Source: a virus (taxonomy: Duplodnaviria; Caudoviricetes). From it: a stretch of 64,000 nucleotides of DNA. The position numbers and the translations under genes are program-made. The notes under the pieces are model-generated. The model was not told where the DNA came from. It saw only the letters and a program-made list of their open reading frames with translations, and made no database searches. The DNA is taken from IMG/VR virus record IMGVR_UViG_3300021426_000005. The stretch is one strand, 5' to 3'. Shown piece after piece: positions 12,867 through 26,276 of this stretch (the first letter of the stretch is position 1; each line of letters begins with the position of its first letter).

Positions 12867-13928
12867 TCAATTTTCTATTATATTTACAACCGCAGGTGCA
12901 TCTTCATCAGATTTAGTATTGATGAACATAGGTGCTACCCACTTAACTACTAACTTACGCTCAGGTGTATCACGCTTACCAGTCCAATAGTGGTGGAAGT
13001 GTGCTCTCCTGGTGTGCGGTCTCTTCCTTGAATGCTTAGTAATTGTTCGGGATCCGCCGGAATGTTCGGTGTTGCTGTTCTGACGAATGATTTGGCCAAC
13101 TCTATACCCTACGTCCCATTTTTGAATAGAACTGAGCTTATCCTTACGAACATTAGCTTTCTTGTATATTTTCTTCTGCTCTGGGTTTTCTACCACATCA
13201 CTATTGATAGCGCAGAGATAAAGAAGTATCTGCACAGCAGTATTCAGGTGCATACCTACATGAGTATCGACTTCTGCAATATAGGCTTCGGCTTCATCAG
13301 GTTTAAGCCTATCCTTTTGAGAGAATACTGCTTCACGGAATAGTTTTGTGTAACCTTCTCTGGATTCTTTTATAGTCAAACCTGGTGTCATCGAAATAGG
13401 AAATCCAAGCACGTTTCCATTTTTCATCACAAACATGATATGAAGTGAATTGAGGAATTCAGTGCTTACGGTAGAAACGTTTTCACCCTTATCAAAGATT
13501 TGAACGTTTCTGGAACAGAAGAATCCTTCGCAGCCTGATGAATAATCATGGATATCTACATAGAATGAATCATAAGGGAGATTTCTAAGGGATTCGATTT
13601 CAACGTCATCACACTCAGACAAAGTGAGTTCTTCTATCAGTGTAGGATCAAATGTGTAGATCTGAGAATATCTTCTCCATGCCGCTAAGTGAAACAAATC
13701 CTCTACGTTTATCCCCTTGGTGTGAAGATTGAGCTTGCTACTAAGTTCAACATAAGCAGTCAGCGGAAGATAACAGCAACTATCCCAAGTCATACCAGAT
13801 TGCATCATGACATCACGGAACATATCTACCATTTCAAATACATCACCGTATCCGGTATCTATCTTGCGAATTTCCTTGATACGCTGTAGCGGTAAAGGCT
13901 CTGCTATAGTTCTTTTCCTTTTAGCCAT
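12867..13928 (-). CDS. AcrVA2/FinQ-like protein
   Basis: WRRYSQIYTFDP, LPYDSFYVD, ILLYLCAIN, WDVGYRVG, RPHTRRAHFHHYWTG...KWVAPMFIN; start moved to MAKRKR. Confidence 0.65.
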   Translation of the reverse strand: MAKRKRTIAEPLPLQRIKEIRKIDTGYGDVFEMVDMFRDVMMQSGMTWDSCCYLPLTAYVELSSKLNLHTKGINVEDLFHLAAWRRYSQIYTFDPTLIEELTLSECDDVEIESLRNLPYDSFYVDIHDYSSGCEGFFCSRNVQIFDKGENVSTVSTEFLNSLHIMFVMKNGNVLGFPISMTPGLTIKESREGYTKLFREAVFSQKDRLKPDEAEAYIAEVDTHVGMHLNTAVQILLYLCAINSDVVENPEQKKIYKKANVRKDKLSSIQKWDVGYRVGQIIRQNSNTEHSGGSRTITKHSRKRPHTRRAHFHHYWTGKRDTPERKLVVKWVAPMFINTKSDEDAPAVVNIIEN

Positions 13929-13976
13929 AATATCATCTCCTATATATGACAACGATTTGTGGTTTTCACTATCCTA

Positions 13977-14126: not shown

Positions 14127-14513
14127 ATGATCAAAGATCTCATATGCCAACGTTGCGGAGCTACATACCAGGGCGATCCCAGAAGCCGGTATTGCTCTTA
14201 CTGCAAAGGACATCGACCTCCGTCAGTTCATATTGGAGATACAAAGGTATGCCCGAACTGTGGCAAATCATTTGAACTCACAAAGAACGGACAAAAATAT
14301 TGTCCTGATTGCGGACCGTTAATAGCTAAGAAGAAGAAAATTGCAGCAAACTATCGGTACGGAAAGAAGACTTATGCACGAATGGAACTTCGTGTTCTGA
14401 AGAATGACAAACAACGTATTGTAGACCATGCGACTAATATGGGCGAATCTGTTAATCAGTTTGTGCTAAGAGCTGTAGAGAATCAGATCAAAACCGATAA
14501 AGGATCAGAATAA
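14127..14513 (+). CDS. zinc-ribbon plus ribbon-helix-helix regulator
   Basis: Four CxxC pairs; C-terminal MELRV...HATNMGESVNQFVLRAV, Arc-like RHH. Confidence 0.7.
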   Translation: MIKDLICQRCGATYQGDPRSRYCSYCKGHRPPSVHIGDTKVCPNCGKSFELTKNGQKYCPDCGPLIAKKKKIAANYRYGKKTYARMELRVLKNDKQRIVDHATNMGESVNQFVLRAVENQIKTDKGSE

Positions 14514-19976: not shown

Positions 19977-20092
19977 AATCGCTCACACTCCTATAATATC
20001 TATAACGACGGGCAAATGCCAAAAAGCAGACCCATTTCCTATTGAGTCTGCTTTGGCTTTGGAGGTCATAGCAATGGCGAACTATGACACGA

Positions 20093-20167
20093 TGGTGATC
20101 CGTAGGGGAGTTGAACCCCTGTTCCCAGAATGAAAATCTGATGTCTTGACCACTTGACCAACGGACC
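20093..20167 (-). tRNA. tRNA-Glu(TTC)
   Basis: Cloverleaf; TCAGA-TTTTCAT-TCTGG; CCA encoded. Confidence 0.9.
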
Positions 20168-20174
20168 ACAATAG

Positions 20175-20250
20175 TGGTGCGACCAGAGGGGTTTGAACCC
20201 TCGACCTACCGCTTAAAAGGCGGTTGCTCTGCCGACTGAGCTATAGTCAC
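20175..20250 (-). tRNA. tRNA-Lys(TTT)
   Basis: ACCGC-CTTTTAA-GCGGT; CCA encoded. Confidence 0.92.
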
Positions 20251-20255
20251 ATATG

Positions 20256-20366
20256 CACTGTAAGCTGGTATCCGGTGCTTCTAATACCGTAGTGTGTAGG
20301 TAGTTTACCATGGTACTATCCTACTTGCTTTGCACTGTCCTCCGAAATTGAACGATGCTTACAGTG
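20256..20366 (-). ncRNA. unknown structured RNA between tRNAs
   Basis: 10-bp closing stem CACTGTAAGC/GCTTACAGTG plus internal hairpins. Confidence 0.5.
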
Positions 20367-20368
20367 AT

Positions 20369-20446
20369 TGGTCCGGATGACAGGACTCGAACCTGCGACC
20401 TCTTGATCCCAAATCAAGAATTCTAACCAAACTGAAATACATCCGG
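20369..20446 (-). tRNA. tRNA-Pro(TGG)
   Basis: CTTGA-TTTGGGA-TCAAG; CCA encoded. Confidence 0.9.
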
Positions 20447-20450
20447 ATAT

Positions 20451-20538
20451 TGGTGCTACCAATCAGACTTGAACTGATAATGAATTTTACTTCGCTGGAT
20501 TTTAAGTCCAGTGTGTCTGCCTATTCCACCATGGTAGC
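20451..20538 (-). tRNA. tRNA-Leu(TAA)
   Basis: CTGGA-CTTAAAA-TCCAG; long variable arm; CCA encoded. Confidence 0.9.
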
Positions 20539-20543
20539 AAATG

Positions 20544-20581
20544 TGGTACTTGAAGTAAGATTTGAATTCACATCAAGTACC
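20544..20581 (-). pseudogene. tRNA-Leu-like minihelix remnant (acceptor plus T arm)
   Basis: GGTACTTGA-TGTGAA-TTCAAAT-CTTAC-TTCAAGT-ACCA; 3' end TCAAGTACCA identical to tRNA-Leu(CAA). Confidence 0.5.
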
Positions 20582-20853
20582 GTTTGGTCGGGTTTACAGG
20601 GAGCGACCCCATATTCCCAATGAGTTGCCTACACAAGAACGTGTAACTTATGTAGGACTTTTATCCCTTTTGCTAGTTTCCGTAGGTAGCTACTTCTACA
20701 GGTTTGCTCATAATCAGGGACGATTTGATGGCTGTTCCGTCTTCATCAATTCTACATCACAAAATTGTAATATCTAAGATACTAGTATTTTACAATGCTG
20801 CCACACCGTTTTTGGATAGTTGGTCCGGAGTTTCTTATCTGGGTCATTGCAAA

Positions 20854-20887
20854 ATTTCAATCCACGCTCCCCGTGAGAGGGGGCGAC
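20854..20887 (-). CRISPR. solitary type I-C-like CRISPR repeat (no array, no cas)
   Basis: GTCGCCCCCTCTCACGGGGAGCGTGGATTGAAAT. Confidence 0.8.
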
Positions 20888-20901
20888 ACCATAATCTCCG
20901 G

Positions 20902-20987
20902 TGGTACTTGAGGTGGGAATTGAACCCACAATGTCTTTCGACACTTGTTTTTGAGACAAGCTCCTATGCCTATTCGGATACTCAAGC
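20902..20987 (-). tRNA. tRNA-Leu(CAA)
   Basis: CTTGT-CTCAAAA-ACAAG; variable arm TGTCGAAAGACA; CCA encoded. Confidence 0.9.
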
Positions 20988-21083
20988 ATATGCCCGGTTT
21001 CAGACCGCAGCTATTGCCACGGTCCGTAACCGGAATCTGAAAAGGTGGTGTATTACCGCCGTACAAAAGGAGAAAACGGCGAT

Positions 21084-21168
21084 TGGTGGGGATAACAGGG
21101 ATCGAACCTGCATGAATTTCTTCACCAGAACCTAAATCTGGCGCGTGTGCCAATTTCGCCATATCCCC
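21084..21168 (-). tRNA. tRNA-Leu(TAG)
   Basis: CCAGA-TTTAGGT-TCTGG; CCA encoded. Confidence 0.9.
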
Positions 21169-21169
21169 A

Positions 21170-21994
21170 CTAGAATAATCGGTTTGTTGCTCTGGCTGGC
21201 TTAATGCTATCTAAACGGCTTTTTGCAATCTCACAATACTCCGGAACTGCTTCAATCAACACCCAGTCCCTTCCTAAACTCTGTGCTACTTTTGCAGTAG
21301 TACCGCTACCACCAAAGGGATCTAGAATTAAGTCACCTGGATTACTCCATGAAATGATGTGATCTTCAACTAGTTTCTCCGGAAAGATTGCAGGATGCTT
21401 GTATGCGATTTCATCAGAAGTAGCAAAGCCTTTGCCGTTAGCATAGCGCCATATGTTCGTTCTGATACCGAATTCACTGATAACCTTTCTACCTTTATTT
21501 GTAAGACTACCGTCCTTTTCACGCCGGGTAACTTCACCATAAGTAGATGTTCCAGCCCATTTGTTAGGCTTATCTTTTATAAGGTTTATGGTTTTAGGTC
21601 TCCCTTTGCTTAGAACGAACATATACTCAAAGGCGTTGAAATACCTGTTGGGGTGGGGCGGTCCGGAGCCGGCCTTCTCATAGATGATCACATCGTACAT
21701 ATCGAAGCCGATCTCCTGGAAGAACAGCGCCTGCTTGAAGCTGGTCAGGGTCTTGCTGCCCTTCAGGGTCTTATCCCCTACCACCCAGACCACGACTCCG
21801 CCGGGCTTCATCACACGGTAAAGCTCCCTGGCGATGGTCTGGAAGACCTCCATATCCCACGAAGCCACGCCCTCGTAGTCTCTTAGGTCGTCGTAGGGCG
21901 GACTAGTCACCACCAGGTCGATGCACTCCGCCGGGAATTCCTTCAGCAGCCGGTCGGATCTGTCGTTGAAGATTTTATTTACAAAATCAAACAT
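21170..21994 (-). CDS. DNA N4C/N6A methyltransferase (beta class)
   Basis: VTSPPY, HPAIFPE, LDPFGGSGTT. Confidence 0.93.
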   Translation of the reverse strand: MFDFVNKIFNDRSDRLLKEFPAECIDLVVTSPPYDDLRDYEGVASWDMEVFQTIARELYRVMKPGGVVVWVVGDKTLKGSKTLTSFKQALFFQEIGFDMYDVIIYEKAGSGPPHPNRYFNAFEYMFVLSKGRPKTINLIKDKPNKWAGTSTYGEVTRREKDGSLTNKGRKVISEFGIRTNIWRYANGKGFATSDEIAYKHPAIFPEKLVEDHIISWSNPGDLILDPFGGSGTTAKVAQSLGRDWVLIEAVPEYCEIAKSRLDSIKPARATNRLF

Positions 21995-22011
21995 TTCACA
22001 CCTCTAACACT

Positions 22012-22046
22012 GTGTGAGATGTGACATCGAAATCACATCTCACATA
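22012..22046. terminator. strong hairpin
   Basis: TGTGAGATGTGA...TCACATCTCACA. Confidence 0.5.
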
Positions 22047-22101
22047 ATGTAATTCAGACCCTTCGCTATAGGTCATGAAGTGAAGCCAAAGGCATCACCG
22101 T

Positions 22102-22210
22102 TGGAGCGGTGTGTAGGTCCTACCCCTACTGGTGGTTACAACCACCTAACAGCATAAACCACCTATATGATGTATGTTGAATGTACGTCATATCGCCGCA
22201 CTGACACCGC
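22102..22210 (-). ncRNA. tRNA-like RNA with CCA end and non-canonical arms
   Basis: Acceptor GCGGTGT/ACACCGC-T-CCA; T-like arm GTAGG-GGTAGGA-CCTAC. Confidence 0.55.
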
Positions 22211-22478
22211 ATATGTATGCCAGTCTTTCCTGGCCGTCAACTTGTCTTTCCAAGTGGTCATCTATCTAGGTCAAAGAAAATATTTACTGAGCGGTTTGAC
22301 CTATAAACCACTTCTTTTCGTCTTTCCGAACCGTCATACGATTTTACAACAGATTTAATTCGTAGTCTATTAACGTATCTGTCAACTCTTTTCATCACAC
22401 TGATACAAGAGATTCAAGCTGCGTCGTCGTTCTTCCTTTTATTTATTGACCCAGTAAACACGATAAAAGTTAGGTCTA

Positions 22479-22554
22479 TGGTTGGTGTAGAGGGATTTGA
22501 ACCCCCGAATAACGGAATCAAAATCCGTGGTCTTAACCGCTTGACGATACACCA
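22479..22554 (-). tRNA. tRNA-Gln(TTG)
   Basis: ACGGA-TTTTGAT-TCCGT; CCA encoded. Confidence 0.9.
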
Positions 22555-22604
22555 ATAAATTTTATACTTGATTTTGGCAGTATACCTATCTTATACCAAA
22601 TCCG

Positions 22605-22698
22605 TGGGGGCGGTGGGATTTGAACCCACAATCTTCTTTGCTTTCCAGAGAAGTAATAACTTCTAAGGCAAGTGACTTAGCTTTTAGTCGACGCCTCC
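22605..22698 (-). ncRNA. tRNA-like gene with a 26-nt expanded anticodon loop
   Basis: Normal acceptor, D and T arms; anticodon stem encloses CTTAGAAGTTATTACTTCTCTGGAAA. Confidence 0.6.
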
Positions 22699-22870
22699 TA
22701 CATGAAGAGCTTCCGCCACTTCATGATTAGATCAGTTATAAGACAGGTTTACACTACCATTACGTTCATTTTGTTCTGTCCAGATCAAGCTGGATCTCAT
22801 TTGTGGCTGATGAACGAACGTCCCACCAGAAATTTGCATTCACAATGTGGGAGAAAGAAACAGCCCTGGA

Positions 22871-22976
22871 TGGCAGCAGTGAGAATCGAACTCACCAGCG
22901 AATGAATATGGTCTGTACTTCTACAGTCCTGAGATTCAAGTTAAATCTCTACATTCCCACTTCAGTGGTCGCCGCC
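22871..22976 (-). ncRNA. tRNA-like RNA with a two-hairpin insert in place of the anticodon loop
   Basis: GGCGGCG/TGCTGCC acceptor; GTGAG-TTCGATT-CTCAC T arm. Confidence 0.55.
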
Positions 22977-23198
22977 AAAAATGTCCCCAGAAGTTCTATA
23001 TACCTCTGGGAAATAAAAGAAGAGGTATTTATTTGGATGTCAGTTTCTGCTTTGTTTTGCTTGTGTGTAAGCAGGATCACACATTGGACAAGAAACCAAG
23101 TCATCACCTCAGTTTCCTGATACACCCCATGAAGGGGATTCACATGGGGTGTTATTTGGGGAAGATGTCCGCAGCTACTGACGCAGATTGCTGTGGAC

Positions 23199-23275
23199 TG
23201 GTGGAACATGAAGGACTTGAACCTTCGATCGTCCGGTTATGAGCCGGAAGCCTTAACCAGCTTGGCCAATGTTCC
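23199..23275 (-). tRNA. tRNA-Met or Ile2 (CAT)
   Basis: TCCGG-CTCATAA-CCGGA; CCA encoded. Confidence 0.9.
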
Positions 23276-25826: not shown

Positions 25827-26276
25827 TCACTTCGCTAATTTCTCAAGCAGCTGTTCATATAGCTGTTTATAAAGATCACGTTCTGTTTTAATAACCAGAT
25901 CCGGTGATATTTCCGGCTGAATCGGTGATATGATTTTAGGCGGATTACAGTTCAATCCCAAGGACGCCATAAGTGCATCATCTATAGGCTTCATCTCAGC
26001 ATCTGTAAGGGACGTTATATAATCTCCAATCCGATTAACAGATACTGAATTGACCTGCTCACATAGAACGGTTGATGTCACGCCGTTTGCGGTCACTTCA
26101 GCATGAGTTGGTAACTCAGGTTTATGCCTAGTAGTAAGATATACTACTTCAAGAACGTTGCTGAAGTGGTTGTTGGTGTTGTTTGATACAATTACACCAG
26201 GTCTACCAGCTTCCTGCTCTGAGCCATATGCGGGCTGCTTGTATATGTAGAAAATATCTCCACGTTTGTATTCCAT
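25827..26276 (-). CDS. PemK/MazF family protein
   Basis: KRGDIFY...GSEQ..GRPGVIVSN...CEQV. Confidence 0.88.
   Translation of the reverse strand: MEYKRGDIFYIYKQPAYGSEQEAGRPGVIVSNNTNNHFSNVLEVVYLTTRHKPELPTHAEVTANGVTSTVLCEQVNSVSVNRIGDYITSLTDAEMKPIDDALMASLGLNCNPPKIISPIQPEISPDLVIKTERDLYKQLYEQLLEKLAK

Follow-up and report, generated by a model that had tools for sequence, protein, structure and literature searches.

A solitary type I-C CRISPR repeat inside a conserved tRNA-like RNA module of a phage tRNA operon, probably taken from a host array at the site of a former protospacer

Introduction

How might a phage come to carry one CRISPR repeat amid its tRNA genes, and what could the repeat do there? 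A 34-nt unit in the 64,000-nt stretch of phage DNA analyzed here (the window) raises both questions. Solitary type I-C repeats on phages that act as RNA anti-CRISPRs are already known. The single viral repeats RacrIF1 and RacrIC1 have been shown to act in this way by sequestering Cas proteins (PMC10651486), and the Racr study listed 2,103 viral repeat units and validated RacrIC1 (Camara-Wilpert et al., 2023; PMC10651486). How phages obtain single repeats and make the RNAs is largely unexplored. A preliminary description of the window had taken the unit for a crRNA mimic, or for a single guide using the ~35 nt downstream.

A lone type I-C repeat among phage tRNA genes

The carrier is a large gut or rumen phage. 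Its genes in the window lie nearly all on the minus strand, and they include those for a T4-type major capsid protein (PF07068), a head protease, helicases, many DNA methyltransferases and a serine integrase. The repeat and its surroundings comprise the following features.

20093..23275, minus strand: tRNA operon with nine tRNAs and one inserted methyltransferase gene (ARAGORN, Rfam)
20902..20987, minus strand: tRNA-Leu(CAA), whose CCA end abuts the RNA module described below (ARAGORN and Rfam; adjacent to the module or in its neighborhood in all relatives)
20854..20887, minus strand: solitary type I-C-type CRISPR repeat, 34 nt (exact match, single copy, two edits from true I-C array repeats)
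20865..20885, minus strand: repeat hairpin, mismatched (C.A) or bulged in the window's variant (folds of five variants and the array consensus)
20854..20864, minus strand: 11-nt stretch equivalent to the type I-C crRNA 5′ handle (UGGAUUGAAAU), invariant in five variants
20023..20054, minus strand: terminator-like hairpin and T run past the last tRNA, Glu (inverted repeat, found by sequence inspection)

The 5′ end of the 34-mer lies 14 nt past the last A of the CCA of tRNA-Leu(CAA) (ARAGORN tRNA, 20902-20987), on the same strand and within the tRNA transcription unit. The preliminary description had given both the spacing and the embedding in the tRNA operon, and both are borne out, as is its claim that the repeat is solitary. 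A second copy at three or fewer mismatches was found neither in the 64-kb window nor in 100 shuffles, and no other window site on either strand rose above 20/34 identity to the repeat. The element is base-for-base identical in two independent samples, a 144,924-nt ENA contig and a 70,941-nt Logan contig. The metagenomes ERZ12302814 and SRR873598 both contain this phage. Searches of IMG/VR returned no match to the exact window repeat, nor any exact or near match to the repeat variants of two relatives introduced below (L244 and L254). The 34-mer is predicted to fold into a 7-bp hairpin that leaves one A unpaired, with its last 11 nt as a single-stranded tail.

The window had also been described as free of cas genes, and we found none. 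A tblastn search of the 64-kb window with 2,318 ORFs from ~120 host I-C array loci, a query set whose content of cas genes is unconfirmed, gave one helicase similarity only. The output of a PADLOC scan of the 74 window proteins was swamped by methyltransferase families and is uninformative on cas genes.

A degenerate pattern scan identified 76 IMG/VR loci and at least 120 loci in species genomes, and both sets include long arrays of this repeat family. Among the matches listed, the closest true array repeats are two edits from the window unit (one T to C change and one extra loop base). One Selenomonas ruminantium MAG (L215) has them as an array of 31 copies, and an IMG/VR locus (L002) has four copies; the two-edit repeat is also present as one copy in a Eubacteriales MAG (L203). 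This short distance to true I-C arrays agrees with the earlier assignment of the unit to the type I-C pattern. The T that the window replaces by C is paired with A in the arrays, so that the window hairpin has a C.A mismatch. The only Rfam match of the repeat was to CRISPR-DR9, below threshold at 16.6 bits against a cut-off of 45.

Matching the repeat to host I-C arrays had been expected to predict the host, and for this the family proved too widespread. Among the matches listed, it was seen in Lachnospiraceae, Oscillospiraceae, Selenomonas, Paenibacillus, Oceanobacillus, Streptococcus, Bifidobacterium and others. Being spread over many Bacillota and beyond, the repeat cannot name the host. 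The phage capsid protein was absent from the 401 Lachnospiraceae and 251 Selenomonadaceae-family genomes sampled, and a 29-mer query had no match in the 401 Lachnospiraceae genomes.

The position in the operon and the terminator-like hairpin at its end, which a terminator scan missed because of the long loop, suggest that the repeat is transcribed with the tRNAs. A promoter scan of the minus strand between tRNA-Leu(TAG) and the repeat found no sigma-70-like promoter. Without a promoter of its own and placed in the tRNA transcription unit, the repeat RNA would be made whenever the tRNAs are. There is no acr gene beside the repeat; typical solitary repeat units differ in having an acr neighbor and their own promoter. 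When the tRNA region was compared with GenBank phages by megablast, one tRNA-sized match was the only result.

The repeat is part of an 81-nt RNA module

Directly after the CCA of tRNA-Leu(CAA) begins a structured segment that contains the repeat.

20821..20901, minus strand: whole 81-nt module with helices P1 and P2, the repeat hairpin and an ACCA end (MFE and consensus folds; boundaries conserved, flanks diverging past ACCA)
20821..20853, minus strand: conserved 33-nt tail, made of the 3′ strands of P2 and P1 plus ACCA (one variable column; the same sequence follows TTC in long-form relatives)

P1 has 6 bp, formed by CCGGAG (20901-20896) and CTCCGG (20830-20825), and the ACCA end follows at 20824-20821. 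As the flanks are unrelated beyond ACCA, the module is a discrete unit. It has no cloverleaf that could be recognized: neither the 81-nt form nor the longer form described below was called by ARAGORN or the Rfam tRNA model, and only the closing stem and ACCA are tRNA-like. Rfam has no family for the module in either form. The locus is a genuine host-type I-C repeat unit inside a conserved 81-nt tRNA-like RNA module of the tRNA operon.

Relatives carry the module with and without the repeat

We collected relatives via homologs of the SbcC-like gene located just upstream of the tRNA operon. In four of them the SbcC-like protein is 96%, 95% (L242), 70% and 69% identical to that of the window, and the tRNA order is Met-Gln-Leu(TAG)-Leu(CAA), followed by the module. 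The repeat-containing module (short form) is confined to genomes with SbcC-like proteins 69-100% identical to the window's, which gives five variants including the window, each with exactly one repeat unit. The repeats differ mainly in the hairpin and all still fold as hairpins. The L242 repeat has a G to A change at the hairpin base, adjoining the expected Cas5c cut; that of L254 has a fully paired 8-bp stem, that of L243 a longer C-rich arm, and that of L244 is shortened to a perfect 6-bp stem with a 4-nt loop. The closing CGC/GCG pairs of the hairpin are kept in four of the five variants.

A scan of IMG/VR and JGI metagenomes with the 33-nt tail yielded five to six more loci, including ones on contigs of 240 kb and 160 kb, and the 33-mer is also present in L245/L246, where the SbcC-like protein shows 52% identity. 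All 33-mer loci outside the window's clade have a 104-nt module (long form) with the ends CCGGAG...CTCCGG-ACCA and without a CRISPR repeat.

L245:10687-10790: long form
L247:266-369, minus strand: long form
L248:4639-4742, minus strand: long form
L249:344-447, minus strand: long form
L251:6200-6303: long form
L252:87-190: long form

These copies lie in tRNA clusters downstream of tRNA-Leu(CAA), either directly abutting it or with one ~97-nt ACCA-ended piece between. Their 33-mer is identical to that of the window in L247, L249, L250 and L251 (33/33) and nearly so in L245, L248 and L252 (32/33). The consensus fold of the long form has P1 (6 bp), P2 (6 bp) and a long apical hairpin, and P2 includes one compensatory exchange between G:C and U:A (three sequences against three). 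The 5′ strands of P1 and P2 adjoin without a gap, and with the ACCA end the two helices give a 12-bp stack like an acceptor/T minihelix. The short form occurs only in genomes with SbcC-like proteins of 69-100% identity and the long form in more distant ones, a distribution that points to the repeat-free long form as ancestral. As the ancestral form lacks the repeat, the ~35 nt downstream are old scaffold sequence and not an acquired spacer. The module is absent from a more distant relative (L253, 43%), and no tRNAs accompany the sole relative of the SbcC-like gene in IMG/VR (34% identity). A comparison set of 42 loci drawn from relatives of the methyltransferase gene was uninformative, as they are without a tRNA cluster and the gene is mobile.

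The preliminary description had asked whether relatives would show a decayed array, and the single unit in each of the five variants speaks against one. That a phage-borne CRISPR array or mini-array decayed until one repeat was left is very improbable. Ten nucleotides at 20607-20598, 280 nt downstream, do match the start of the consensus repeat and are kept in L242 and L243, but a spacing of 280 nt is not array-like, about three chance 10-mer matches are expected in the window by our estimate and two were seen, and no cas homologs were found in the window. The 10-mer itself, GTCGCTCCCT (20598-20607, minus strand), matches the consensus host repeat over its first 10 nt and is notable for its nearness on the same strand; it is probably a chance match.

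We consider it extremely improbable that the unit is a chance or convergent hairpin unrelated to CRISPR, or a Cracr-type regulator of host cas or toxin genes. The Rfam score for CRISPR-DR9 is below threshold, and viral crRNA-like regulators, type I-C ones included, do exist (10.1101/2024.10.29.618823). Against chance, two edits over 33-34 nt are all that separates the unit from real array repeats, and no shuffle produced a match. A Cracr-type regulator is unlikely because the tail is ancestral scaffold and was not selected to match a host promoter.

The repeat ends on a probable former PAM/protospacer border

Relative to the long form, the window clade lacks the segment from the end of the P2 5′ strand through a TTC. 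The repeat stands in its stead and replaces the apical hairpin, so that the predicted short-form fold keeps P1, re-forms P2 and has the repeat hairpin at its apex. The long form contains exactly one TTC (positions 69-71); its 33-mer starts at position 72, and the last base of the repeat abuts this same position. The type I-C PAM is 5′-TTC, on the crRNA-matching strand and directly 5′ of the protospacer (10.1101/2022.06.15.496202; PMC8406640). Because the repeat takes the place of TTC, it joins the 33-mer just as, in an array, it would join a spacer taken from that site. The module continues for 33 nt past the repeat, through the ACCA end, and most of the 2,249 spacers from the fetched I-C arrays are 33-36 nt long. 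A random junction within the module would meet the TTC border about once in 64 to once in 100 cases.

That the repeat's 3′ end falls exactly on this border suggests that the repeat was captured from a host array at a site once targeted, an origin that we consider somewhat more probable than not. A host type I-C array would once have held a spacer from the TTC-flanked site. Recombination between this spacer and the phage protospacer, together with an illegitimate upstream junction, would then have brought one repeat into the phage, and insertion of the repeat would have removed the PAM and so let the phage escape that spacer. Recombination between spacers and phage protospacers has reportedly been documented in staphylococci by Varble et al. 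in 2019. No array spacer matching the 33-mer was found among the 2,249 I-C spacers, IMG/VR, JGI metagenomes and 401 Lachnospiraceae genomes, and for want of such an array the origin is something that we infer. A search of the flanking sequence for a target, as proposed earlier, matched the 33 nt to sibling phages and not to a host gene. A repeat that replaces the PAM at a protospacer border would be the footprint of host-array capture, and would tie CRISPR escape to the birth of a repeat mimic.

A Dorea spacer was compared with the long-form hairpin and rejected, as the match reaches no more than 24/33, lacks a TTC and is what chance would produce with 2,249 queries.

If the repeat had instead been inserted independently of any protospacer, it would be a plain RNA anti-CRISPR, as in the preliminary description, and the TTC border would be a coincidence. 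Phage contigs commonly carry single I-C repeats (one pattern scan gave 41 single-copy cases among its 76 IMG/VR loci), and RacrIC1 has been validated (PMC10651486). The junction, however, coincides with the one TTC that the 104-nt ancestral module contains, and the 41 other single I-C repeats are all outside this scaffold and away from tRNAs. We regard coincidence as distinctly improbable.

The segments of the module differ in constraint

Variable columns were counted per segment in an alignment of the five short-form genomes. The tRNAs have 1-3% variable columns, the inter-tRNA spacer upstream 20% and the 282 nt downstream of the module 8%. Within the module, the 11-nt handle has no variable column (0/11) and the 33-nt tail one (1/33). 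The hairpin is the most variable segment (13/22), yet a hairpin is always kept. Against a background of 20%, its excess variation is significant (binomial, 6e-5), whereas the invariant handle does not reach significance by itself (P = 0.09-0.4). The scaffold suffices to explain why the 33-mer is conserved; the repeat-free long forms conserve it equally.

A variable upper stem and loop with kept closing pairs and a kept tail is the pattern that Cas5 recognition would demand, and a generic hairpin in a slippage-prone C tract fits it too. Closing pairs and tail are the part that Cas5 enzymes are said to read, as Nam and Garside reportedly found in 2012.

These counts bear on whether the repeat is now an inert scar. 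The captured repeat would have had no other use than CRISPR escape through loss of the PAM, and would now be a generic hairpin in place of the lost apical helix, with no Cas contact. The high variability of the hairpin (13 of its 22 columns) is what one would expect of a scar, as are the mismatched hairpin of the window, the altered hairpin base of L242, a 33-mer whose conservation is accounted for by scaffold function and is the same in repeat-free long forms, and the lack of an acr neighbor and of an own promoter. What argues for retained function is the handle, invariant in all five variants where 8-20% of nearby columns vary, if not significantly so on its own, and the closing CGC/GCG pairs kept in four of five. 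We judge an inert scar unlikely, if well worth weighing.

A possible crRNA mimic made with the tRNAs

A solitary I-C-type repeat on the tRNA strand, within the tRNA transcription unit, makes a crRNA-mimic role reasonable, either as a decoy or as a single guide. The preliminary proposal stands in this respect, with the correction that the downstream stretch is old scaffold and not an acquired spacer. Our preferred reading joins origin and function: a piece of a host array, captured at a former protospacer, may now work as a crRNA mimic that is made with the tRNAs, as decoy or guide. We hold this combined reading tentatively, as one that could nearly as well be true as not. Taken by itself, present working as a crRNA mimic made with the tRNAs is a possibility to which we give slightly less than even weight.

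Under this preferred reading, the module would be co-transcribed with the tRNAs and cleaved by RNase P at its first C, the same cut freeing the mature CCA end of tRNA-Leu. Cleavage of the module is a supposition drawn from general knowledge of RNase P substrates. The resulting RNA would have ACCA as its 3′ end, would be stable, and would present the hairpin and 11-nt handle to Cas5c and Cas7. In the I-C Cascade, Cas5c cradles the 5′ handle and seven Cas7 subunits polymerize along the guide to its 3′ end (10.1101/2022.06.15.496202). As a decoy, the RNA would tie up Cas5c and Cas7 in the manner of an RNA anti-CRISPR. As a guide, it would be cut by Cas5c to free the 11-nt handle with a 33-nt guide, which would fit sibling phages with the ancestral allele and not the carrier. 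The two outcomes are compatible with each other. Features that argue against activity are the C.A mismatch in the window hairpin, the G to A change of L242 beside the expected Cas5c cut site, and the pairing of the 3′ half of the would-be guide in P1 and P2 of the predicted fold. That the repeat lies within a tRNA-like, ACCA-ended RNA of no described family suggests that tRNA processing is used to produce abundant repeat RNA.

The guide outcome can be stated more specifically. The handle and the 33-nt tail (ending in ACCA), released by RNase P, 3′-end processing and host Cas5c, would load host I-C Cascade and direct Cas3 to long-form phages. The carrier phage's own copy would be protected because the end of the captured repeat replaced the PAM. 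In L247, L249, L250 and L251 the 33-mer matches at 33/33 with 5′-TTC directly upstream, and in L245, L248 and L252 at 32/33; the tail has the length of a spacer, and virus-borne mini-arrays aimed at relatives are known (PMC6858448). On the other side, the unit has a single repeat and lacks a repeat hairpin on the 3′ side, the tail takes part in scaffold base pairs, and the match is a by-product of common descent for which selection is not needed. We consider a guide directed at sibling phages quite unlikely. If true, it would amount to a natural "tRNA-guide" cassette by which phages turn host immunity on their own relatives, and large phages would have a general way of passing from CRISPR escape to CRISPR hijack, by capturing a repeat at a formerly targeted site.

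Comparison with known systems

Like the solitary viral repeat units of the Racr type, and RacrIC1 in particular, the window element is a single type I-C repeat on a phage, with a hairpin and handle and with no cas genes or second repeat nearby. Unlike them, it has no promoter or acr neighbor of its own, is embedded, within a tRNA operon, in a conserved scaffold RNA that ends in ACCA, and has its 3′ end on a former PAM/protospacer border; its anti-CRISPR activity is only putative. What is new is this scaffold RNA, the placement among tRNA genes with no promoter of the repeat's own, and the pair of ancestral and derived alleles that place the repeat on the PAM/protospacer border.

With virus-borne mini-CRISPR arrays it shares a sequence after the repeat that matches close relatives with a correct PAM, and a carrier copy that is not targetable (Medvedeva et al., 2019; PMC6858448). 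The window unit, in contrast, has one repeat and not two flanking a spacer, its "spacer" is the phage's own ancestral sequence in place and not an acquired insert, and it belongs to bacterial I-C phages whereas the mini-arrays are from archaeal viruses. Cracr RNAs are likewise viral, repeat-derived and such as would engage host Cas proteins, and type I-C examples have been reported (Liu et al., preprint; 10.1101/2024.10.29.618823). Their spacers match host cas or toxin promoters, whereas the window tail is scaffold sequence.

The species 1 and 2 RNAs of phage T4 are stable non-tRNA RNAs of a phage tRNA operon. Like these RNAs and other tRNA-like RNase P substrates, the module is a small structured RNA arranged head-to-tail with tRNAs, and its closing helix and ACCA resemble an acceptor stem, discriminator base and CCA. 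It is unrelated to the T4 RNAs in sequence, and its cleavage by RNase P is presumed. Engineered polycistronic tRNA-guide RNA arrays, reportedly a laboratory design for Cas9 guides by Xie et al. in 2015, also have a CRISPR RNA directly after a tRNA, with its end set by tRNA processing; the window would be a natural type I-C arrangement of this kind.

A recurrent single I-C repeat was seen in gut phage contigs of IMG/VR (L001, L003, L014, L021, L024, L030, L031 and L057), with identical flanks and a partial GGATTGAAAA ~45 nt upstream. Its sequence suggests that it may be a mini-array with a degenerate first repeat.

Additional features of the tRNA operon and its neighborhood

The N6/N4 DNA methyltransferase gene (21170-21994, minus strand) lies inside the tRNA operon of the window, L242 and L254, and is missing there in L243, L244 and L245. 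Its nearest relatives are in unrelated phage contigs without tRNAs, which indicates a mobile cassette. A second tRNA-Leu(TAG) call (22604-22698, minus strand) is 95 nt long and scores low with Rfam (41 bits). In L242 nothing aligns to ~22577-22765 and no tRNA was called in that interval, and the call may represent an insertion or an aberrant tRNA.

The 282 nt from the module to tRNA-Leu(TAA) (20539-20820, minus strand) are 92-95% conserved in relatives, and the region 20539-20901 folds far better than shuffles (z = -3.4). This stretch may be a second non-coding RNA, to judge from the predicted folding. Just ahead of tRNA-Leu(TAA) lies a hairpin (20545-20581, minus strand) whose 3′ half resembles the T arm and acceptor end of tRNA-Leu(CAA) and pairs with a complementary 5′ strand, with ACA after it. 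It looks like a tRNA-derived minihelix or a half-tRNA pseudogene. The apical hairpin of the long-form module also reads TTGAAT-18-TATAAT, a spelling that leaves room for a role as promoter.

A PemK/MazF-like toxin gene (25827-26276, minus strand) followed by a DUF1653 gene is located just upstream of the SbcC-like gene. The pair is present in all relatives, and the toxin-domain protein is twice as long in the more distant ones. Between the helicase and toxin genes of L245 is an IS605 OrfB/TnpB-type gene with a Cas12f1-like TNB domain (L245:4989-6203), which is absent from the window. The window ORF at 12867-13952 (minus strand) gave no Pfam family at E <= 0.01 and no AcrVA2-like match, and is divergent from a double zinc-ribbon gene (14127-14513). 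Its positional counterpart in L245 (L245:14817-15812) has a precomputed AcrVA2-like Pfam match.
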